Positions 27,721-64,000 of a DNA stretch of 64,000 bases are shown one piece after another. Position 1 is the stretch's first letter. Each line of letters opens with the position of its first letter. The notes beneath the pieces are model-generated. The model saw only the letters and a program-made list of their open reading frames with translations. It made no database searches and was not told the origin of the DNA. The position numbers were made by a program, and so were the translations under genes. The stretch is from a virus: positions 12,094 to 76,093 of the IMG/VR virus record IMGVR_UViG_3300023082_000002; one strand, written 5' to 3'.

Positions 27721-27878
27721 GAGAATGTCACGTAATCTGACGTGTCGATCCCGATGACATTCGACCCCTTGCGGCCTGCAAACTCCTTGTCGAACTCGGC
27801 CTTGTCGGTCGTGTCCGTCATGAGAATCCAGCTCCCGTCATCGGGATTCTGAACAAGCATCAGGTAGTGGGTTTCCAT
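27717..27878 (-). CDS. 53-aa hypothetical protein (not in ORF track)
   Basis: METHYLMLVQNPDDGSW...; TAATG and ATGA overlaps. Confidence 0.5.
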   Translation of the reverse strand: METHYLMLVQNPDDGSWILMTDTTDKAEFDKEFAGRKGSNVIGIDTSDYVTFS

Positions 27879-28714
27879 TAGAACTGAACCGCCTCTCGCA
27901 GCGCCGCTTCATTGACGCCTGTGTAGATTTCTGTCGTGGTGACGTTGCCGTGACCCAGGAGCTCCTGGACCAGTCGAATGTTGCGCGTTCTCTCAAACAC
28001 CAGGGTGGCGAATGTGTGACGCATGTCGTGTGATGCGATCGGTCGTGACAGCTTTGCACGCTCGCCCAGTGCTGTGATGACCCGACGGGCTGGTCGATCA
28101 GAGTAGGTAATGAGACAGGAGTCATTACCTCTAAGGATCGCCTCGGCGTAGCACTCCGAGATAGCGGCCCATGCTTCATCGGACACAGGTACGATGCGGG
28201 TCTTGTCACCCTTGCCGCGAATCGAAACGGTCATATCGTGCAGATTGAACCACGAAGGACGAGTGTCACGTGCCTCACTGATGCGGCATCCGATAAGTCC
28301 GGTCAGGCTAACAAGGGCCTTTTGCTCGGGGTTGGACGCCGCATCAATCATACGAAGCAAACCATCCTTGCCCTCGCTGATCGGGTGTGCGATGCCACGA
28401 GCGGTGTGCGGCGGCATGTAGTCATCGAGGATCAGCGGGTCACCCGCCCACTTCGCCCACACCTTGACCGAAGTGAGGCGGCGTCCAGTTGTCTTGGGCG
28501 AGAGGAGGGGTCGACTCAGGTTCAGCCACTTCTGTGCTGCTTCCTCCAGGGACTCCATCGGAATCGCCGTCTTCCCCGACTCCGCTAGAAGAATCAGAAG
28601 GTCCGACCGATACGCCTTGCATGTATGCTTCGACAGCCCCCTTCCTAAACACCACGCGTGGAACTGCTCGATAGACTCTGTCGAAAGAGTCGTCGCCCGC
28701 TGCAAACGCTTCAT
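27878..28714 (-). CDS. XerC/D-like tyrosine recombinase
   Basis: GCRISE (R), RGKGDK (K), HDMRH, VQELLGH, TTEIY (Y); 278 aa with no arm-binding domain. Confidence 0.9.
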   Translation of the reverse strand: MKRLQRATTLSTESIEQFHAWCLGRGLSKHTCKAYRSDLLILLAESGKTAIPMESLEEAAQKWLNLSRPLLSPKTTGRRLTSVKVWAKWAGDPLILDDYMPPHTARGIAHPISEGKDGLLRMIDAASNPEQKALVSLTGLIGCRISEARDTRPSWFNLHDMTVSIRGKGDKTRIVPVSDEAWAAISECYAEAILRGNDSCLITYSDRPARRVITALGERAKLSRPIASHDMRHTFATLVFERTRNIRLVQELLGHGNVTTTEIYTGVNEAALREAVQF

Positions 28715-32461: not shown

Positions 32462-35380
32462 TTATCGGTCCGTCAATTTTTTCTCAAGGTGATGAATGAC
32501 CTTGACCAGGTCTTCGTCTCCGTCGACTCGAACGGTATCCATCCCGAACTCTTCAGGCGAACTGGTTCGGATACCGACGCCCATGAGGGTGATGTTCTGC
32601 TGCCTACACTTGGCGATCTGAGTCTGAAGAACTTCGAGCTCCTCGTCATAGTTTGCCGCAGGCATTGCGCCGTCAGTGTAGTACAGAATGATCTTGTCGG
32701 TTGCCGGAGTCCGCTCAACAGCCTTGCGATAGTACTCTAGCGTATGACCGTCGACGTTCGCCTGAAGTGGTCCAATGTTCTTCAGAGATTCGCGAGCACG
32801 GTCATCCCATTGATCCTGAAATGACTTGATCTCATATATTTCCATGCTGAGATTCTCGTACGTACCATCTCCACTGTCGAGTGCACTATGTGCATACACA
32901 GCGAAGTCAATACCAACTCGTGAACACAGTTCGGCCTGAGCCGTGACCGCCCGTTTCGCGAGCTTCATATTGCGAGCACCAGTGAATGACATGCTGGCCG
33001 AGATATCAACCCCGATGACGACGGCGTACGACTTCTTGCCGGGCAAGATAGTCTTCTTGAACATGCGTGGATCGTTGAATGGAGCGCGCTTGGCGAGCGA
33101 CCCACCCCGAATCTTTCCCGACTTCAAGTTCTTCTGATGACGAGCACGCTTGTTATCATCGAAGACACGACGCGTAACCTGCAATGCTTCACCTAGCAAA
33201 GACTCATCAGGCTCAAAGTCACCACGCAAGCCGATGTTGCGAAGGGACTTTTCGCTGTAAAGAACCTTGTCCCCATTAGTGCCACGCCATGCGTTGTCAG
33301 AGTCAGGGACATCGGTGTATCGGTGAACATTGACACCGACAATGTTCACAGGAGCTGTATCAAAGTACAGGCCTTGCTCGATCGCAACTTCCATTGCGGC
33401 CTCTGCGGTACCATCGTCCACTGATTCGCCAAGCGAATACTCCGCAGACTCCTCGGCGTGATGGTCGCCGTGATGACCAGTCACTGCCTCCACGTACTGC
33501 GGAACAGAATCAGCGGAGCCATAATCTATTTCCGCTTCCAATTCCTGGCCCCAAGGATCGCTGCCTGTGTCGGATGAGCTATCCTCCATGTCATTCGGCT
33601 TGTCGGTGCCGAGCTCATTACTTCGTGTCTCAGATGCTGGGTCAGCATCGTCAGACCGATCCGCCTCCAGGGAATCCTCGCCGCCGACTGCTCCCTGATC
33701 TTCGGGCGCCTCGTCAGTGGCGAGTCCACTATCTGTGTCAGTGTCACCCCCAGACCCGTCGGGCTCTCGTGGATCACCGTAACCACTTTCAGTCTGGAAC
33801 TCTTGTGAATCATCCCCACTGCTACGACTGTCTTCGTCATCTAGTCCTCCTTCTTCCTCCGAGCTGTCTGTCTCGCCAGTTCCTGATCCGCCGGACTCAT
33901 CTTCGATACCTTCTGGATCGACCTCCGCTGCTGACTCTTCGGTCGACGAATCTTCCTCAGTCGCGTCACTGGTTACTCCCCTGTTAGCTTCCGCTGTGTC
34001 TCCAGGTACGCTCTCGCCTGCTCCCTCTGGATTCGGTGACGATCCTCCGTTGTCAGGTTGATCGTCACCGGACTCGCTGTCGTCTTCGGGTACTCCTGTG
34101 CTGTCGCCGGAGCCAGAGGGAGAACCGTCATCATCTGTGTCAGGCTGTTCGTCCGTCTCGCCTGCGCCGCTGTCAACATTCGACGCATCGCTCGGAGTGT
34201 CGTTCTCTGGAAAGGCCTCCTCAGTCTCAGGGGAATCCTCGGCATCATCAGACTGAGCATCCGATAAATCTGAATGGTCAGACGATCCAGAATCGCCTGC
34301 CACCTCCCCTGTATCCTCGCCCTTGCCAGCGCCTTGGTCATCGTCAGCTTCATCCTCGGTATCTCCTTGTTCTTGGTCGGAAGATTCTTCCGATGATTCG
34401 TCATTGTCCTGACTATCGGACTCTTTGTCCGGTTCAGTTCTATCCTGCTTATCTTCGGACTCCTGGTCCTGCGGCTCAGGCTGCGGCTCGTCATCCTCTG
34501 TAATGTCGTCGGCCTCAGCAAAGAAGCCGAGCTCTTTGCCGCGCATCAAGGCATCGAAGGACAGGTTGAACACGTCACTCACCGAGCGTGCAGTCTTGGC
34601 ACCTTCGGCAGTAGCAGTAAGCTCCGAGTCATAGCATGCCGCGACCACCTCGGGTGCAAAGAAGTCGTTGACCTCCCAGCGGGACGCTACTGCATACAGA
34701 GCAACAATCAGTTGAGCATTGAGGGGCGCGTCGATCCATCGCGCAACCGAGCCGTCTGCCTGCTCGACACCCTCGGTAAAAGCTCGGCGTGCTCTGACCT
34801 CTCGCATCTTGCGTGTACCCTTGCGAGCCAAGAACATGCGCTCGTCGATGCGAACGTCCTCAAGAATGTTCATGATCTGACCCAGGTACTCTGAAATAGA
34901 GTTAGCCAGTAGTATGAACGAATCGCCACCCTGCTTCCCCTGGTACTTCTCCATGCGCCTGTTCATCTTAGCAACAAAGTCGTCACCCTTGAATGCGACA
35001 GCAGCGGAGAGGGCCTTTGCTCGATCCTTGTCTGTGAAGGGAGCGAACGAGTGGTAAGCAATGTGTGCGATCTCGTGATAGATGCCAGAGAGAATATCTT
35101 CACGCACTCTACACGCAGGGCATAGCTGCTGAAGGGTGACGTCATCTCTCTTGTCACACACGCTGCGGTCATGCTTTGTGTCGTCGGCTAGTGACAACGG
35201 GGGACGGTAGAAGATCGTCGTGCCGTCCGTGTGGGGAAACCCTGCGGTCACCTGGATGCGGACGGCGGGCTCCCCCGTAACGGCGCGAGCGTAGGAGGTG
35301 AGGCCGGGCTGCATCGTGCGAAAAGCTGCCAGAGCTTTTTGGGCTCTAGCAACATGGTCGCGGTCAACTGTCTGACTCAT
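32462..35380 (-). CDS. VWA (CobT-like) protein with HEXXH domain and long acidic linker
   Basis: YHEIAH, NILEDVRI, MIDAS DISAS, TDG; ~330-aa D/E/S-rich segment. Confidence 0.85.
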   Translation of the reverse strand: MSQTVDRDHVARAQKALAAFRTMQPGLTSYARAVTGEPAVRIQVTAGFPHTDGTTIFYRPPLSLADDTKHDRSVCDKRDDVTLQQLCPACRVREDILSGIYHEIAHIAYHSFAPFTDKDRAKALSAAVAFKGDDFVAKMNRRMEKYQGKQGGDSFILLANSISEYLGQIMNILEDVRIDERMFLARKGTRKMREVRARRAFTEGVEQADGSVARWIDAPLNAQLIVALYAVASRWEVNDFFAPEVVAACYDSELTATAEGAKTARSVSDVFNLSFDALMRGKELGFFAEADDITEDDEPQPEPQDQESEDKQDRTEPDKESDSQDNDESSEESSDQEQGDTEDEADDDQGAGKGEDTGEVAGDSGSSDHSDLSDAQSDDAEDSPETEEAFPENDTPSDASNVDSGAGETDEQPDTDDDGSPSGSGDSTGVPEDDSESGDDQPDNGGSSPNPEGAGESVPGDTAEANRGVTSDATEEDSSTEESAAEVDPEGIEDESGGSGTGETDSSEEEGGLDDEDSRSSGDDSQEFQTESGYGDPREPDGSGGDTDTDSGLATDEAPEDQGAVGGEDSLEADRSDDADPASETRSNELGTDKPNDMEDSSSDTGSDPWGQELEAEIDYGSADSVPQYVEAVTGHHGDHHAEESAEYSLGESVDDGTAEAAMEVAIEQGLYFDTAPVNIVGVNVHRYTDVPDSDNAWRGTNGDKVLYSEKSLRNIGLRGDFEPDESLLGEALQVTRRVFDDNKRARHQKNLKSGKIRGGSLAKRAPFNDPRMFKKTILPGKKSYAVVIGVDISASMSFTGARNMKLAKRAVTAQAELCSRVGIDFAVYAHSALDSGDGTYENLSMEIYEIKSFQDQWDDRARESLKNIGPLQANVDGHTLEYYRKAVERTPATDKIILYYTDGAMPAANYDEELEVLQTQIAKCRQQNITLMGVGIRTSSPEEFGMDTVRVDGDEDLVKVIHHLEKKLTDR

Positions 35381-37872: not shown

Positions 37873-39408
37873 TCACAGCTCCACGTTCGATCGAACGATG
37901 TCAAGGACCTGGTCAGCCTGCTTCGGCTCGAGGTAGTCAGCGGCAGCCATGCGATACGCGGTGAGGAAGTCGAACCATCGCAACGCTCTTGCGACCTTGA
38001 TCTGCGGGCGGATAGCCCAACTGATCTGCAGACTGCCTGACTGAATGTTGGTTCTGATGTCATCAGCAATCGCCATGAGTGCATCCATCTTGTCACGCGG
38101 AATATCCCAGCCGTCGTGCTTGCAGCGGGTCTCGATGATCTCACGCTCCAGCTTATCGTCGGGCAGTCCGACACTGAAGTGCATGAGACGGTTGGCATCG
38201 GCGTCACCGATCATCTGAGTACCGATGTTGTTCATATCCCAGGCAGGGTTCATCGCGAGACCTAGGTACGCGTCACTGTGGCGTGTGATCCGCTGACCCT
38301 TTGCCATGTCGAGAACCAGCTGCTTGCTGTTATCGGTGAGCGGGCGGATGAACTGCCACACGTCAGCGGGTGCAGTGTTGGGCTCGTCGAGGATGATGAC
38401 ACACGGCTTACCCCAGGCACGAGGGAGGCGACCGAACTCGAACACGGTCTCGCCATTCTCATACAGCCACTTGCCAGCGATGTCATCGAGCTCGGTCGAT
38501 CCGGTGAACGACAGACGCTCGAATGGCAGGCACATCAGCCATGCCATGAACCTGAAGAACTCGGTCTTGCCCGTACCGGCCTGACCCCAAAACGCTGGGG
38601 TCTCGTCGAGCTCTGTCCATAGCACGACCACCTTGTAGAGATAGAAGGCGTGATCGACATAGTCCTCGGGGTGCTCGTCGTCGCCGGTCCGTGGAATCTT
38701 GGCCTGCTCCTCGGGCGAGAAGTGATTCAGGTCATAGATGGGAAGCCAGACCGAGTTGTCGGACATCGGGTCTTTGATCTCCCGCCATGCCCTGATGCCG
38801 TGAGCGGCGTCCTCGGCAGACACTTCCTTATCCGTCTCGTACTCGGTCGGATCAACAAAGTTAGCCTTGGCCTTGGCGTGAGCTGCGACCGGATCACCAG
38901 CAACGGTGAAGTTCTCAGCGTACTCGGGAATGAAAGTCATGCCCGCCATGTCGGGGCGAGGCGTACCGAACGAACGGTAATCGCAGTTACGAGCCTCGAG
39001 TGTGGTGCGATTACCGAGGATCAACTTACCCTGCGCAGCACACATGCCTGCACCCCAGCCCGGACCCTTAACAACAACTTCGAGGTCGATGTAGTTACTG
39101 CAGTTGAGGCAGGTACGAACAGCCTCGGGCATGTTACCAGCACCGGGCAGTGTAGACTGGGGGTCGGGCAGCATCACCTGAAAGTCTGCGGTCTTCCAGT
39201 CGGGCGTGATAGGAGCAGGCTTGCCATACGAATCACAGTTCTTCGCGAACGTCTTCGATATCTCGGTAACCTCCGGAAGAGAAGACTTGATGCGACCGAG
39301 GGGCTTACCGAACCGAGCACAGACTGGAACACCGATGCTCTTGTTAAAGAACTTTGTTGCCTGCTGGGTCGTGAGCATCGAGGGGCAGTCTAGGCATGAC
39401 TGAGACAT
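37873..39408 (-). CDS. MoxR/CbbQ/CobS-type AAA+ ATPase with Cys-rich N-terminus
   Basis: GQAGTGKT, IILDE, AMNP, NRL; two CxxC...C repeats in the N-terminus. Confidence 0.85.
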   Translation of the reverse strand: MSQSCLDCPSMLTTQQATKFFNKSIGVPVCARFGKPLGRIKSSLPEVTEISKTFAKNCDSYGKPAPITPDWKTADFQVMLPDPQSTLPGAGNMPEAVRTCLNCSNYIDLEVVVKGPGWGAGMCAAQGKLILGNRTTLEARNCDYRSFGTPRPDMAGMTFIPEYAENFTVAGDPVAAHAKAKANFVDPTEYETDKEVSAEDAAHGIRAWREIKDPMSDNSVWLPIYDLNHFSPEEQAKIPRTGDDEHPEDYVDHAFYLYKVVVLWTELDETPAFWGQAGTGKTEFFRFMAWLMCLPFERLSFTGSTELDDIAGKWLYENGETVFEFGRLPRAWGKPCVIILDEPNTAPADVWQFIRPLTDNSKQLVLDMAKGQRITRHSDAYLGLAMNPAWDMNNIGTQMIGDADANRLMHFSVGLPDDKLEREIIETRCKHDGWDIPRDKMDALMAIADDIRTNIQSGSLQISWAIRPQIKVARALRWFDFLTAYRMAAADYLEPKQADQVLDIVRSNVEL

Positions 39409-48161: not shown

Positions 48162-48177
48162 TGTGATCTAGGTCACA
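48162..48177. promoter_or_regulatory. CRP/GlxR-type site
   Basis: TGTGA-TCTAGG-TCACA. Confidence 0.7.
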
Positions 48178-48399
48178 CTAATCAATGACGGGACTGAACG
48201 TCACATCGCCGTCCGGGGTCGTGATGACATATGTCACATCACTCAGGTCTGCGTGTGACGTGATGACCCGGACGGGCGTTTCGCACATTTCGCCGTCATC
48301 GAACTGAGCCGCCACGCGCAATTCGTGGATGAATTCAGCATGGTCAACTATCGTGGGCAGGTGCTCGAAAGATGCCGAACGAACGTATTTGGTGAACAC
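48178..48399 (-). CDS. Early hypothetical protein
   Basis: SD AGGAG; 73 aa. Confidence 0.6.
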   Translation of the reverse strand: MFTKYVRSASFEHLPTIVDHAEFIHELRVAAQFDDGEMCETPVRVITSHADLSDVTYVITTPDGDVTFSPVID

Positions 48400-48503: not shown

Positions 48504-48677
48504 CTAGTTACCGAGTCGGTGCCCGTTGGTTGCCCGGTAGTCGTGCATAAATGCGGCCCGGTTGACTTCGGCCATGACTTCATCCGGCGTCATATCCGAC
48601 GTGTCCGTCATGGTAGCACGAATCGAGTCGTTATCGGCGTTGAATGCGGCCCATGCGCGATCGTAATCTAGTGCCAT
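48504..48677 (-). CDS. 57-aa early protein (not in ORF track)
   Basis: MALDYDRAWAAFNADND...; first gene behind promoter copy 2. Confidence 0.55.
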   Translation of the reverse strand: MALDYDRAWAAFNADNDSIRATMTDTSDMTPDEVMAEVNRAAFMHDYRATNGHRLGN

Positions 48678-48703
48678 GATATTGAGTCCGTTCTAGTTTT
48701 CTA

Positions 48704-48754
48704 GGTCCGTTTGACCCGATGTAGAAACAATAGCACGGTTCTAGTCGTTTGCAC
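48704..48754 (-). promoter_or_regulatory. Duplicated early promoter/leader module, copy 2
   Basis: Repeat of 46970; -10 candidate TATTGT. Confidence 0.55.
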
Positions 48755-48778
48755 CCATCGAACACCCGATTATTTCGA

Positions 48779-48794
48779 TGTGATCCACGTCACA
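48779..48794. promoter_or_regulatory. CRP/GlxR-type site
   Basis: TGTGA-TCCACG-TCACA inside a longer palindrome. Confidence 0.7.
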
Positions 48795-49061
48795 TCGGAT
48801 CGAGTCGTCGCGTGATTAGACACCCATCGGTCGGCATGTGTCAACCGGTATGGGCAAACCAGTTCTAGATATCTCACGTATCACGATCACACGATGTGAT
48901 GTCTAGTCAAATTCAGTAGTCCAGTATGTGGGATTCGCGTCTAACGGACGAACGGCACCGAGTCGATAGGGATAGTCCGTCGTGGTGCTAGTAGGCCGTT
49001 AGATCGCAATTTCGGGCATCCAGGTGTGGGGGTTGTTGTCAATACGTTTGATGGATTGATG

Positions 49062-49105
49062 TTGTCCACAGCTTTATACACAGCTGTGCATAGACATGTG
49101 GATAG
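49062..49105. promoter_or_regulatory. Cluster of four DnaA boxes
   Basis: TTGTCCACA (+), TTATACACA (+), CTATGCACA (-), CTATCCACA (-), spaced 3/2/3 bp. Confidence 0.75.
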
Positions 49106-49182
49106 AGATGGTACATACGTTGGTACATAGCAGTCATAGTGAGACATTGTGTATGTGACATCGTGAGTGTCACATGGATGTA

Positions 49183-49235
49183 GACATGTCGATATGTCGA
49201 CAAATGGATTTAACGACATGTCGATTTGTCGACAA
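49183..49235. repeat. Direct repeat GACATGTCGATwTGTCGACAA x2
   Basis: 49183-49203 and 49215-49235, 20/21 identical. Confidence 0.8.
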
Positions 49236-49459
49236 TTGGCCTATGTTACACCATCAATGGCTCATACGAGATGTTACATCGTTGATGACACATGCATGGT
49301 GTCACATGGTCGTTTCTGGTTGTACCAAGCATTGTAGTGCTCGAGACAAATCGCCCAAACCTAGTTGGATGAAAACTCGTTTTGTCAATCGGAATCGCGA
49401 ATTAGAAATTTTTCTATATCACACGTCAAAACCGACTCGTTTGACTGGATATGTGGTAT

Positions 49460-49487
49460 AGGTCCGATAGGTGCCATTATCGGACCG
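49460..49487. other. Symmetric dif-like recombination site (11-6-11)
   Basis: AGGTCCGATAG-GTGCCA-TTATCGGACCG. Confidence 0.45.
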
Positions 49488-49503
49488 GCATGTCTAGCCG
49501 TAA

Positions 49504-49519
49504 TCGAACACGTGTTCGA
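49504..49519. promoter_or_regulatory. LexA SOS box (actinobacterial)
   Basis: TCGAAC-ACGT-GTTCGA, perfect consensus. Confidence 0.75.
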
Positions 49520-49665
49520 TACCCCTACCCCCGAAAAAAATCCGAGCCCCCCCGTCAGTTCGCAGCTACTTCCATCTCCGAGTGCACAGAACTTTTTTAC
49601 CAGTCTCATATGATATTCGGGTCAGATAGTACTGACATGGCACCCATCGGGCGAAAATGTCATCT

Positions 49666-50212
49666 ATGGCAGAAATACACAATAAATAACCATATATTTG
49701 ACAGTAATTAATTCATTGGAATCGTAGGCTTTTCTTACCGTTCTAGCATTTTCAGCCTTTTTTGCCATGACCTTCTGGCCTTCGGCGGAATGGATGCCCT
49801 GGACTCTGCGCTACGCTGGCCGGGTGTGTGTAGCTGACAAGATTCCATCAGATTTTCTGCCATAACATTTCATGTATCCCTGAGCCAGGGTCGATGAACA
49901 CCCTGTAGACCCCCCTCTGCCCCCTCTCCCCATGGCAAAAAAGGCAGAAATACAGAAAATACGATTTTCGTTGGAATCACGGCGTTTTAATATTGCCTGA
50001 ATATTTGCCTGGCCATGGCGGAAAATAGGCGAACGGTGTGTTTTTCACCAGAGTTGGGTCCACTTCAGATTTTCTGTCAAACATTTGGCAATAATTCCTG
50101 ACCGTCCCAAATCGGTGTCGATTTGTCATGGCAGAAAATCTGAAGCGGTACTTGCGGGGTGAATATTGCGTATGTCACAGGGGTTTGGCAGAAAATCTGA
50201 CAAAAAATCTGA
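49666..50212. repeat. Iteron-like repeats (A/T)TGGCAGAAAATCTGA in an AT-rich region; putative replication origin
   Basis: Full copies at 49848 (-), 50065 (-), 50128 and 50185; partial copies at 49666, 49759, 49932, 50015 and 50201. Confidence 0.6.
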
Positions 50213-50242
50213 TAGAGGTAGAAGTAGTACGGTTTTACACAA

Positions 50243-50279
50243 AGAAACACCCCGCTCGGCCAAAGAACAGGGTGTTTCT
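50243..50279 (-). terminator. Putative terminator of the primase operon
   Basis: AGAAACACCC/GGGTGTTTCT stem with a T-rich tail on the minus strand. Confidence 0.55.
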
Positions 50280-50298
50280 ACCTAGAAGTTGAGCACTT

Positions 50299-50694
50299 TT
50301 AAGGGCTTGTATAGAGCGGCAAACGCTCTGCTGCGGCCACTTCTGCGCGACCAGCTTCGAGCATTTTGGCCCAATTCTCGGCCTCTAGGCGGCGTAGCGC
50401 CGCCGCCCTCTGTTCGAGGATGGTACCGAACCAGACAAGAACTGGCTCACAGCGCGCCCAGTATTCGCTGGCCTGGGCGCCCGTTCTCTCTCGCGCCTTG
50501 ATGCGATGTGCCGCCATGCACAGGGGTCCGCGGCATCCGTCCATGTAAGTCGCCTCGCTACCGTGCTTGCGGCGACCGAAGTCCTCATGCTCGTACTCGG
50601 CAATACAGGCGTTGATCTTCAGCAAGCAATCGTCTACGAATGCGACTTTGTCGTCGTAGAACTCGAACTCGGGTATGAGGTGTAAGGGGATCAT
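50299..50694 (-). CDS. Hypothetical protein with HG-x3-Y-x2-GCR-x3-C motif
   Basis: KHGSEATYMDGCRGPLC; ATGA coupling. Confidence 0.6.
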   Translation of the reverse strand: MIPLHLIPEFEFYDDKVAFVDDCLLKINACIAEYEHEDFGRRKHGSEATYMDGCRGPLCMAAHRIKARERTGAQASEYWARCEPVLVWFGTILEQRAAALRRLEAENWAKMLEAGRAEVAAAERLPLYTSP

Positions 50695-52853
50695 GATGCC
50701 ACCTTTCGGAAGCGTTTTGCCGGTCGACCGCGTCCCGGCTGCGGGTCTTCAACCTCAAGCATATCCAATGCTACGAGGAAGTCGATCGTCTGCTTCAGCG
50801 CTCCCGGTGCTGGATTCTTGCCCCGCAGGTAGCGGCTCAACTCTGACGATGTGGCTCCGCGTCCGGTCTTTGCAAGGTGCTTTTCGGCGTAGTGCATAAC
50901 GTCATCTGCAAGCTCGTGCTGTGCAGTGACCCCGATACTGGCGGAAACAAGGCCGTAGCAGTAAACAAGATAGTCCACGATCGGCATAGCACGCTCATGG
51001 ACTTCCAAGTCGATCTTCGTTTTCTTCTGATTGATCGCAATGAGCAGCATAACTTTCTTGTAGATAAGGTTGAGACGTTGCAACATCTCAGTGTCATCCT
51101 TGTCCATCATGGGCTCGATCTTGGTCTTGAAGAAGCTGTAGATCGTCGGCATAGCGGCGTCGTCAATCATGAGAAGACGCTTGGTGTTGCCACCCCAGCC
51201 TTTGATCTTCAGCAGCTCGTCCTTGGCTCGAGCCATGTCGACCTTGACCTCGCTGTGGTCTCCGCCGAAGACTTCACGCTCCTTGCGCGGTCCGCCCGCG
51301 AAGACCCAGCGATTCAGGAAGCCGTTGACCTGATCGTTCTTGCTCAGGATCGCACGAAGTGCTCGCGGCTGCGTAGATGCCGTGATAGAGCAGAAGGGTT
51401 CGAAGGCGAGTTGATCGCCGTTGGTCTTCGAGCCCGTCGTGATCTCTGGATGACAGTCAGCAAACTTCATGATTGTCTGCTGAAGTGTTGATCCGATGTT
51501 CTTCGACTTCGAGATCATACCCGAGAACTCGTCCCAGTCCACTATTCCGTTGACCGGAGCAAACTGTCCATTCGGCTTTCCGGTGATCGGATCGCGCTGA
51601 TGGTACTCGAACTGCCCGATCAGGTGCTCGCCAGAACCTGGAATCGTGAGCGCTTTAACTCCCACGGTGCGATCCGGCTCGGCTTTAAAAGGGACTACCT
51701 CACGCAGAAGCGTGTCCAGATAACGACGTGACTTCGACTTGCCGAATCCCGTACCACCCAGCAAGCACAGCATGAGGTTGGCGTTCACGGGAGGTCCGTC
51801 GTTAATCTGTACGTTCTTGCCGACCGTGTGTCCCAGTGCCAGCATAGCATGCCAGAAGTGGTATTCTTCCGGGCTGTCATCGCGCGATGTCGCTACCATG
51901 TACTCGTACAGAAAAGTGTCGGGAGCGCAGATTGCCTTCCAGTCCAGCGTCGGGTACACGATGACATCAGCTGGTGCGTCATCCTTGTAGTCGATGGGCA
52001 CGACACCCAGCTGTGTAACGGTCCCTATACTTGGCTCGGGCGCTTCGACGGGGTTGGTCTCAGCCTGTGTAGCCTGAATGTTGAAGTAGTCCGCAGCGTT
52101 CATACCGGGCGTGCCGGTCACTTCGCCTTCAGGGTCCTGCTGCACCGGGGTCTCCGACGGGACCGTAGTTGTGGCGTCAGTAGAGGCCGGTGCAGCAGGG
52201 GCTGGGGCCTGTACAGACCGAGAAGCCACCTGCGGGGGAGGTGCAGCCTGTACAGGAGCTTGTGAGGGTGTCGGCTCTTCGGGAAACCAGACGACAGCGC
52301 GCTCGCCAGGCTTGCGGACCATGTTCAGTCCGAATGAAGATGCCATGTCTTCTTTGAGACGATGGAACTCCGCGCCGACGACGTTCTTCGCTTTAGGTCC
52401 GCGACCAAAGCCGATCGAGCCCAAGTCCATGACGTCGCCACCAACCTGGCAGCCTCCACAGTACCAAGCACCCGAGACGGTGTTGATCCATGCCGAGGGA
52501 TGCTCGTCGCGGTGGTCGGGTAGCGGACATGAGATGTAGATTTCATCACCACCCGCCGAGCCCCCGATTGTCTTGCCGATGAATTTAGCGTACGCCTTGA
52601 GTGGGTTGGCCTTGATCTGGTTTAGAGTCTGCTCGATAGCACGTTCGGATCGTGCCTGCTCGTCGCTGACGTCATAGACCTGTGGGATCAGGTCAGCATT
52701 TTCTTCGTTGACGGGAACCAGATTCGGTCGCTCTACTTTGTCGGTCTTTTTGTAGGTCTCAGGCGTGATTCCCTTTTCAGCCTGAATCTTGGCGAGCCGT
52801 TCCTTGAAGGACGGCAGTTCGGAAGTCACAGGATGCCCACCTTTTCCAGCCAC
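50691..52853 (-). CDS. Primase-type CHC2 Zn finger fused to a DUF3987-like P-loop helicase with C-terminal winged helix
   Basis: CPLPDHRDEHPS...WYCGGC..GGD; GGTGFGKS; WDEF; GFLNRW; GRPA. Confidence 0.8.
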   Translation of the reverse strand: MAGKGGHPVTSELPSFKERLAKIQAEKGITPETYKKTDKVERPNLVPVNEENADLIPQVYDVSDEQARSERAIEQTLNQIKANPLKAYAKFIGKTIGGSAGGDEIYISCPLPDHRDEHPSAWINTVSGAWYCGGCQVGGDVMDLGSIGFGRGPKAKNVVGAEFHRLKEDMASSFGLNMVRKPGERAVVWFPEEPTPSQAPVQAAPPPQVASRSVQAPAPAAPASTDATTTVPSETPVQQDPEGEVTGTPGMNAADYFNIQATQAETNPVEAPEPSIGTVTQLGVVPIDYKDDAPADVIVYPTLDWKAICAPDTFLYEYMVATSRDDSPEEYHFWHAMLALGHTVGKNVQINDGPPVNANLMLCLLGGTGFGKSKSRRYLDTLLREVVPFKAEPDRTVGVKALTIPGSGEHLIGQFEYHQRDPITGKPNGQFAPVNGIVDWDEFSGMISKSKNIGSTLQQTIMKFADCHPEITTGSKTNGDQLAFEPFCSITASTQPRALRAILSKNDQVNGFLNRWVFAGGPRKEREVFGGDHSEVKVDMARAKDELLKIKGWGGNTKRLLMIDDAAMPTIYSFFKTKIEPMMDKDDTEMLQRLNLIYKKVMLLIAINQKKTKIDLEVHERAMPIVDYLVYCYGLVSASIGVTAQHELADDVMHYAEKHLAKTGRGATSSELSRYLRGKNPAPGALKQTIDFLVALDMLEVEDPQPGRGRPAKRFRKVAS

Positions 52854-63239: not shown

Positions 63240-64000
63240 ATGACGATCACACTCGCACCCGACGCACGTCGCTCGGTAGGACTCTTTTCTACGGGTCTCG
63301 GGATCATCGACCACAAGCCGAAGATCGCATTCGCCAAGGGGACCAAGTCAGACCGTATGGTCTTGACGGTGACCGACATGCCCGTCTTCCGATCGGGAAC
63401 CTTCCGTGACTCGATGGGCTACCAGCACACCTGGGAGTCCATTCACATCGACCAGATGGTGATGCACTACTCCCACCTGGCATCGAACGGCATCTTTTCA
63501 GATGTTCCGGTTCGCAAGGGTCACGGCTCGTTCCTTGGTGATCCCATGGATTCGTTGATCGGTTGGCACACGGGTCTGCGTGCCGAGACAATGACCTCCA
63601 CGCACGATGGAAATGAGTACAGCTACCTTCTTGCCTCGTACGAGATTTTTGACGAGGAAGCAGCGGCCCGTGTCGAGGGTGGTGATTGGCGAAACCGTTC
63701 GTCCGAGGTAGGGTTCTACTTGACGAACGCGGAGGCAGAGTACTGGCCCGTCTATCAGGGGTTCGCTTACGTGGACATTCCTGCAGTCGAAGGTCTGAAT
63801 GGCTTCTCCAAGGCAGTCAAGTCCCGCAGCAACTTTTCAATGATGATGGAAGAGGAGACAGCCGATATGGCCGAGACACCCGAAGAGAAGGCAGCCCGCG
63901 AAGCTGCCGAGGCTGCAGCGGCCACTCCGCCCGCAGCCGCCGCGCCCCCCGCTGAGCAGGCCGCGCCCCCCGCCGAGCAGCCCCCCGCCGAGCAGCCCCC
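63240..64000 (+). CDS. Capsid maturation protease (Mu gpI-like) with nested scaffold; 3' truncated, not in ORF track
   Basis: MTITLAP...VFRSGTF...GH...IGW...RNRSSE...AYVDIPAVEGL; then A/P/E-rich PPAEQ repeats. Confidence 0.8.
   Translation, partial: MTITLAPDARRSVGLFSTGLGIIDHKPKIAFAKGTKSDRMVLTVTDMPVFRSGTFRDSMGYQHTWESIHIDQMVMHYSHLASNGIFSDVPVRKGHGSFLGDPMDSLIGWHTGLRAETMTSTHDGNEYSYLLASYEIFDEEAAARVEGGDWRNRSSEVGFYLTNAEAEYWPVYQGFAYVDIPAVEGLNGFSKAVKSRSNFSMMMEEETADMAETPEEKAAREAAEAAAATPPAAAAPPAEQAAPPAEQPPAEQP

Follow-up and report, generated by a model that had tools for sequence, protein, structure and literature searches.

A candidate site for a phage-encoded Xer-like recombinase lies among host-type regulator motifs in a probable genome-end region

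What use does a virus have for about 800 bp of DNA that encodes no credible protein and is tiled with sites resembling those of host DNA-binding proteins? We address this question for positions 48760-49555 of a 64,000-nucleotide window, the last 64 kb of one 76,093-bp contig (IMG/VR record IMGVR_UViG_3300023082_000002) from a leaf-litter metagenome assembly. Coordinates below are those of the window. An earlier note, made from the sequence alone, had read this stretch as a catalogue of host operators and proposed that it acts as a sponge for host regulators, as a protective coat of host proteins, or as a ratchet or stop for DNA injection. The explanation we consider most probable, and hold with some confidence, is that the array is the early-gene side of a genome-end region and consists of local cis elements, namely a recombinase site, host-regulator sites and sites for DnaA and phage proteins, with no decoy function. 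At its centre would be a 28-bp palindrome that is likely the target of the phage's own Xer-like tyrosine recombinase.

The stretch is the early-gene-proximal half of a larger gap between genes, which needs to be defined before its contents are described:

48678-50298, no strand: the whole non-coding gap of 1.6 kb, delimited by the open reading frame (ORF) map, negative coding scores, low GC content at third codon positions (GC3) and low GC content

The stretch is non-coding. Codon log-odds are negative for every ORF in the gap, GC3 is 0.38-0.53 compared to 0.64 in genes, and a PHROG search returned no match for any of them; on the strength of these negative scores and the missing PHROG matches, the small gap ORFs were rejected as genes. 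The absence of a credible ORF over about 800 bp, which the earlier note had reported, is thus confirmed, and every motif it listed was found in place. An Rfam search of the gap gave only a meaningless miRNA match (E=0.29). Counting palindromes with exact 6-bp arms and a spacer of up to 12, we found 21 in 48760-49555, against a mean of 4.2 (sd 3.1) in windows across the genome and 3.5±2.3 in 500 dinucleotide shuffles, none of which reached 21. This is the most palindrome-rich part of the 76-kb genome, and no non-overlapping window matches its count. DnaA-like boxes number 6 where 0.65 are expected (0/500 shuffles), and the SOS, CRP and dif-like patterns were attained in only 4, 2 and 1 of the 500 shuffles, respectively. 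All of these patterns therefore exceed the shuffled sequence that the earlier note had suggested for comparison. Short words are enriched as well: ACAT/ATGT occurs 28 times against 5 expected (5.6-fold), and TAGACAT occurs 4 times against 0.03 expected.

Among these motifs, the dif-like palindrome is the best conserved, and its distribution can be set beside that of a recombinase gene elsewhere in the genome:

49460-49487, no strand: recombinase core-site candidate ("dif-like"), a 28-bp palindrome of 11-6-11 layout
27878-28714, minus strand: Xer-like tyrosine recombinase of 278 aa (PF00589, E=1e-22)

The two inverted 11-nt arms of the site, AGGTCCGATAG and TTATCGGACCG, enclose an asymmetric 6-bp spacer, GTGCCA. 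The same architecture of inverted arms and spacer is present in all site-bearing relatives; the arm ending CCGATAR is conserved across them, while the 6-bp spacer differs in nearly every genome. Constant arms with varying spacers are the expected signature of a tyrosine-recombinase crossover site. The pattern CCGATA-N8-TATCGG has one copy in this genome and one each in the relatives G001, G002, G004 and G005, where all copies fall in the gap downstream of the helicase gene; the reversed control pattern has 0 matches in the same genomes. A looser core, CGATA-N8-TATCG, occurs exactly once in 8/9 further near-complete IMG/VR relatives, 9/9 of which encode the recombinase, and once each in ReqiDocB7, Perlina and GordTnk2. 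The Gordonia phages Orchid, Jumbo and Camerico are those with mapped ends, and in 3/3 of them the sole genomic copies of the site are the two that lie within their direct terminal repeats (DTRs). No perfect site is found in Luker, GTE7, TIN2 or Austin, which share the helicase and lack the recombinase. In all, the site is present in 19/21 recombinase-positive genomes and in 0/4 recombinase-negative relatives. From this pattern we consider 49460-49487 the likely target of the phage's own recombinase. A literature search found no paper describing the site.

The recombinase itself has XerC, XerA and XerD as its best NCBIfam matches, all far under the cut-off (119.6 bits against 335 for XerC and 105.7 against 329.6 for XerD), so it is not a XerC or XerD orthologue. 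Its best solved homologues are the archaeal XerA structures 5HXY and 4A8E, with which the R, K, HxxR, H and Y motifs align. Identity to the homologues is 41-51% in uncultured relatives and 30-40% in ReqiDocB7, Perlina, Jumbo, Orchid, Camerico, GordTnk2 and others. For these integrase-like genes, earlier work stated that the attP "could not be identified" (PMC5559632), and the GordTnk2 homologue, gp72, has been termed XerC-like (PMC4563357).

The resemblance to Xer sites raises the question of whose enzyme uses the palindrome. Sampled bacterial dif sites have the common form CCGATAA-N6-TTATGTNAA, so the phage arms copy the XerC-type arm. With the single-recombinase Xer systems (archaeal XerA/dif, XerS/difSL, XerH/difH) and bacterial XerC/XerD-dif, the phage site shares a 28-bp 11-6-11 layout, and its arms match exactly the XerC-type arm with terminal CCGATAA that bacterial dif sites commonly have; it differs in going with a phage-encoded enzyme, in lying at genome ends with no chromosome terminus involved, and in having two XerC-type arms. 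One could hence imagine that host XerC/XerD uses the palindrome, or that a cryptically temperate phage with a LexA switch uses it as an attP, whether to integrate or to persist as a plasmid prophage; the combination of iterons with a LexA box, DnaA boxes and a resolvase-type recombinase does resemble a plasmid maintenance region. We regard this as improbable. The site is missing exactly where the phage recombinase is missing, both arms are XerC-like with no distinct XerD arm (TTATGTNAA), and, because the spacers differ between phages, there would be no common attB. Furthermore, no lysogens have been obtained for GordTnk2 or phages of its type (PMC4563357).

If the palindrome serves the phage's own recombinase, its position relative to the genome ends becomes central. 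Relatives in IMG/VR were recovered with a helicase alignment query, a scan with the single helicase protein having found none, and they too have a low-GC, repeat-rich gap of at least 1 kb downstream of the helicase module. In Orchid and Jumbo the gene order is the same as here (helicase operon, gap, leftward early genes), and the record ends within the equivalent gap. We recomputed exact DTRs of 249 bp for Orchid, 370 bp for Jumbo and 316 bp for Camerico; the sizes for Orchid and Jumbo agree with the published values (PMC5559632). The earlier note had placed the array upstream of the earliest genes and supposed that it could be the first DNA to enter the cell. It does lie upstream of the leftward early genes, and because the physical ends of the relatives with mapped ends lie in this gap, a terminal position is plausible. 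We thus take 48678-50298 to be, probably, the genome-end (concatemer-junction) control region.

Several observations concern the boundaries of such ends. In 17/38 related IMG/VR loci (L005-L039), a contig end falls within 4 kb downstream of the helicase gene, which fits either a physical end or a hard-to-assemble repeat across the family. In Orchid, Jumbo and Camerico (L001, L003 and L060), the helicase-side DTR boundary lies exactly 30 nt past a T6-7 run and G-rich DNA, TTTTTT(T)-G(G)AARGGG..., a fixed spacing that suggests a terminase recognition and cut signal. Placing the DTR boundary of the present phage by this 30-nt rule was tried and rejected: here the T-run/G-rich motif is on the opposite strand relative to the helicase, so its homology is doubtful. 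A 25-bp overlap, located in a 15-nt coding tandem repeat (window 63965-64000 / genome 1-40), joins the contig into a circle. The start point of the contig is therefore arbitrary, and the IMG/VR label "direct terminal repeats" reflects this assembly overlap rather than a mapped DTR.

If, by homology, the site lies within a short DTR in this phage as well, the virion DNA would carry two direct copies of it. Recombination between the DTR copies would produce a unit-length circle with one hybrid repeat, together with a small linear piece; the one copy that remains in the circle could then serve in multimer resolution. A precedent exists in phage P1, where Cre/loxP cyclises terminally redundant DNA and resolves plasmid dimers. 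As in P1, a phage-encoded simple tyrosine recombinase would act on a single short site with inverted arms and an asymmetric spacer, and direct copies at the ends of virion DNA would yield a circle. Because P1 is packaged by the headful, only some of its virions have two lox sites; in the relatives considered here every virion would have two, because the site is within a short exact DTR. The systems also differ in that the enzyme here is Xer-like, the site is 11-6-11 and not 13-8-13, the phages are apparently virulent, and recombination is predicted. Jumbo is another parallel: its palindrome and its recombinase belong to the same families as those described here, and the mechanism proposed for them is the same. 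The present phage differs in belonging to an uncultured lineage with a helicase 25-30% identical to that of Jumbo, in having additional SOS, DnaA and CRP-type sites around the recombinase site, and in its unmapped ends.

A number of points weigh against this explanation. The phage's own termini are unmapped: the source run yielded a single contig of 76,078 bp that showed neither ends nor joints nor variants, and the DTR is assigned by homology to relatives whose helicases are 25-46% identical. GordTnk2-type relatives have been reported as pac-type with limited permutation (PMC4563357). Two recombinase-positive genomes, Reynauld and G036, are without a perfect site. A distance of 21 kb separates the recombinase gene from the site, and the gene is not one of the very first, so circularisation right after entry would need early expression or a virion-carried protein. 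Finally, the DnaA cluster and CRP-like site described below recur in one relative only and are absent in nine others examined.

What, then, surrounds the recombinase site? Four features resemble sites for host regulators, the last of them outside the stretch:

49504-49519, no strand: perfect actinobacterial-type SOS (LexA) box TCGAAC-ACGT-GTTCGA, unique in the genome
49062-49105, no strand: DnaA-box cluster, two forward and two reverse, with start-to-start spacing of 12, 11 and 12 nt
48779-48795, no strand: CRP/GlxR-consensus palindrome TGTGA-N6-TCACA, preceding the first early ORF by about 100 bp
48162-48177, no strand: second CRP-like palindrome, perfect, TGTGATC..GTCACA, upstream of a 244-aa early ORF

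The SOS box is 17 bp from the recombinase site. With at most 1 mismatch allowed (background 0.021 per kb), 4/11 genomes (this phage, G004, ReqiDocB7 and Perlina) have an SOS-like box no more than 100 bp away from the site, against an expectation of 0.046, and the gap of L007 contains a 20/21-nt match to the box including its flanks. Neither sequence inspection nor a promoter scan revealed a convincing promoter overlapping the SOS box. Of the "four DnaA boxes" in the earlier note, one is perfect (TTGTCCACA at 49062) and two have one mismatch (49074 and 49097, minus strand), but the fourth, at about 49085, is weak with two mismatches. Three or more DnaA boxes within 60 bp occur only in this genome and in G001 in the roughly 600 kb scanned, both times in the homologous gap. 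The G001 (L012) trio reads TTATCCACA, TTATACACA, TTATCCACA with 12/12 spacing, and the TTATACACA variant and the 12-nt spacing are common to both clusters. The CRP-like 17-mer is also found unchanged in the G001 gap, with its orientation to the helicase gene preserved, and the two phages share the element order iteron array, G-rich tract, recombinase site, DnaA boxes, 17-mer. Several host-type sites are thus more than chance and look real, and their binding by host proteins is predicted. We propose that the SOS box and CRP-like site would bind host regulators and thereby affect recombination or promoters of the terminal or early region, and that the DnaA cluster, together with the repeats described next, would provide sub-terminal sites for DnaA and phage proteins such as the terminase small subunit, a replication initiator or early regulators.

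Apart from the host-type sites, the gap is filled with repeats, of which the last listed lies outside the stretch:

49144-49309, no strand: sub-array A, repeat families D1 and D3, recognised by k-mer enrichment
49109-49129, plus strand: direct repeat TGGTACATA, two copies (49109 and 49121), the sole two perfect copies in the genome
48886-48900, no strand: palindrome ATCACA-N3-TGTGAT, from the palindrome scan
49848-50212, no strand: array B, a 15-nt iteron TGGCAGAAAATCTGA in five copies and both orientations, AT-rich, beside the end of the helicase operon

Sub-array A is built from two 34-nt units (49144-49177 and 49276-49309), which carry ATGTGACA-N7-TGTCACAT (49153) and TGACAC-N7-GTGTCA (49286), and from 25-nt repeats at 49183-49207 and 49215-49239 that are 92% alike and contain TGTCGACA palindromes; it also holds ATGTTACA twice. 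Its parts share the half-site ATGTGAC, which flanks the DnaA trio in G001, and the word TAGACAT, which may be the site of an accessory protein. TAGACAT stands at 48899, 49091, 49181 and 49490, and it directly adjoins the recombinase site here as well as in G002, on both sides in the latter (L048, ~1480-1540). TAGACA-type words lead the enriched repeats of three other relatives. Two further ATGTGAC half-sites, at 48200 and 48233, are within a 73-aa ORF (48178-48399) with a weak coding score of 0.087, and this ORF may be partly regulatory DNA. The enriched words of the gap differ between lineages: TAGACA-type words in G002/L005, L007 and L008, GTCAACA in L006 and L007, and ACTAGTC in L015. At the position of array B, relatives likewise have iterons of their own, GGGAGACA in L012 and GTCAACA in L006 and L007. 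Array B is likely an origin or a terminase-binding array.

Conservation across the gap is accordingly mixed. The comparison of syntenic regions that the earlier note had advocated recovers the SOS box, the DnaA cluster and the CRP-like site in some relatives, but most other repeats are lineage-specific. As a catalogue of host operators, the array stands up in part: SOS, DnaA and CRP-like sites are above chance, but the best-conserved element, the dif-like site, is explained by the phage recombinase, and lineage-specific repeat words fit phage-protein sites or promoters better than host operators.

The DnaA cluster and the iteron-like repeats of sub-array A could alternatively constitute a DnaA-assisted phage origin beside the helicase-primase. 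Four close DnaA-type boxes are far above the shuffles, a trio is kept in G001, the DNA is low in GC, and genes for an AEP primase and the helicase-primase adjoin the gap. The latter enzyme may contribute directly:

50691-52853, minus strand: helicase-primase of 720 aa (PHROG 5311, E=2.5e-110), with a DnaG-type zinc ribbon and a predicted C-terminal winged helix

In relatives this protein is a DUF3987-type helicase. A model of its C-terminal 125 aa reached a pLDDT of 85, and the best Foldseek folds were the winged helices of PadR, Fur, MarR and Orc1/Cdc6, with high probabilities and weak matches (E-values ~7e-3, TM-scores 0.35-0.5). A PDB sequence search with the helicase profile matched only the primase zinc ribbon. 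The modelled winged helix could bind iterons. In the alpha protein of satellite P4, a primase-helicase, a C-terminal winged helix binds the iterons of ori and crr; the modelled enzyme would resemble it in being a primase-helicase with a C-terminal winged helix and short lineage-specific repeat arrays nearby. No sequence or fold match of the helicase-primase to P4 alpha was obtained. Nevertheless, an origin in this half of the gap appears rather unlikely. No DnaA cluster is present around the site in the other 9 relatives examined, and cumulative GC skew has no origin signal and no feature at the gap. The DnaA-cluster region is 47% GC, whereas the AT-richest DNA is 500 bp off in array B; array B (49650-50212) also has the cleanest iterons and lies nearer the helicase operon, which makes it the better candidate for an origin. 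An origin role for the cluster would in any case be compatible with the genome-end explanation that we prefer.

Two further elements lie close to the recombinase site, the first of them shared between distant relatives:

49524-49603, no strand: conserved block of ~75 nt, C-rich with A7 and C7 tracts, then GTGCAC...TTTTTT
49401-49445, minus strand: promoter-like element TTGACG, 17 nt, TCTAAT, with the -35 at 49429-49424 and the -10 at 49406-49401

The conserved block is alignable in 7 genomes (this phage, G001, G002, G004, G005, ReqiDocB7 and Perlina) and visible in L007. The proteins of these genomes (the window and L047-L050, L057 and L058) are only 30-50% identical. The homopolymer G-run/C-run of the block switches strand between genomes, and from this we infer a DNA signal rather than an RNA signal. 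The block may be a terminase or DTR-boundary signal.

The promoter-like element is a consensus match that sits in the palindromes TAGAAA-N2-TTTCTA (49403) and GTCAAA-N9-TTTGAC (49425); it is unlisted in our promoter scan since the scan demands A at position 2 of the -10. It brings up the possibility that the whole array is an early promoter and operator field, in which host regulators (CRP, LexA) and phage regulators would act on leftward promoters, with no role at genome ends. The embedding of TTGACG-17-TCTAAT in two palindromes, the recurrence of the ATGTGAC half-site, and the placement of the CRP-like sites, one ~100 bp before the first early ORF and its twin before the next early gene, all speak for such a field. 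It is nonetheless a doubtful account of the array as a whole: promoter-like matches are no more frequent than in shuffles (4 vs 3.2±1.5), most sites are 300-800 bp from any ORF, and the dif-like site follows the recombinase gene and the DTR, not promoters.

The proposal of a multi-regulator sponge, a protective host-protein coat or a T5-like DnaA-mediated injection stop can be weighed against the same sites. In its favour, the host-type sites are real and in or near the probable terminal region, and the left terminal repeat of T5 has a comparable untranslated region with 8 DnaA boxes (bioRxiv 10.1101/866236). This T5 region, iss, appears by analogy to come nearest, among described regions, to the array in its entirety: both are untranslated genome-end regions packed with repeats, inverted repeats, palindromes and DnaA boxes. 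In T5 the DnaA-box set is conserved, and the DnaA-dependent injection stop is only proposed (Davison, bioRxiv 10.1101/866236). The T5 repeat is 10 kb and goes with two-step injection and the A1 and A2 genes, whereas here the repeat is probably a few hundred bp, DnaA boxes recur in one relative only and a recombinase site is present. Each genome has one LexA box, one or two CRP sites and three or four DnaA boxes, and with 1-4 sites per regulator these would be too few to titrate abundant regulators, barring very high copy number. In addition, the recombinase site, but not this set of host sites, is retained in relatives, most of the repeats are words peculiar to a lineage, and no two-step injection genes were recognised. 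Beyond the analogy with iss, the sponge, the coat and the ratchet all find no support, and we regard them as very improbable.

The wider genome context completes the picture. The gap has a GC content of 0.45, compared to ~0.56, and is bordered by the first leftward early ORF, whose start is at 48677, and by a 131-aa ORF and the helicase-primase operon. To its left, a minus-strand gene block of ~38 kb begins at 48677; to its right, the 131-aa ORF, the 720-aa helicase-primase and an AEP primase are on the minus strand, followed by TerS and TerL on the plus strand. One more element lies at the right edge of the gap:

50243-50279, minus strand: terminator-like hairpin after the 131-aa ORF (inverted repeat I22)

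No match to the gap was found by blastn among 50,697 phage records. The closest relatives by helicase, P0002-P0004 (Logan/ENA), are 51-55% identical, and the distant cultured relatives are siphophages of Gordonia, Rhodococcus and Tsukamurella with a helicase identity of 25-31%. The leftward block includes a 972-aa protein with a C-terminal CobT/VWA-like domain, at one of 32462-35380 and 37873-39408, with a MoxR-type AAA_5 ATPase alongside; the CobT/VWA-like and MoxR-type AAA_5 pair at these two positions is drawn likewise in published GordTnk2-type maps.

Taken one step further, a lox-like site flanked by docking sites for LexA, DnaA and CRP could form an end module that senses the state of the host, gating circularisation, first replication and early transcription by SOS, replication and cAMP status, with a possible transient plasmid-like carrier state. 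We offer this as a speculative extension with little probability at present.

Phages of clusters CX and DF, ReqiDocB7-like phages and many uncultured relatives (phages of Gordonia, Rhodococcus and soil) encode a small "integrase" for which neither a site nor lysogeny is known. A conserved, single-copy, lox-like site inside the terminal repeat is a concrete candidate target for this enzyme, and it points to a way in which short-terminal-repeat phages could form circles independently of host recombination. The pair of recombinase and site would also put a compact new tool on offer for Mycobacteriales genetics. Lastly, the recurrent LexA box and the DnaA boxes in two lineages would extend the pattern known from T5, in which lytic phages have, at their genome ends, docking sites for host proteins of chromosome maintenance.

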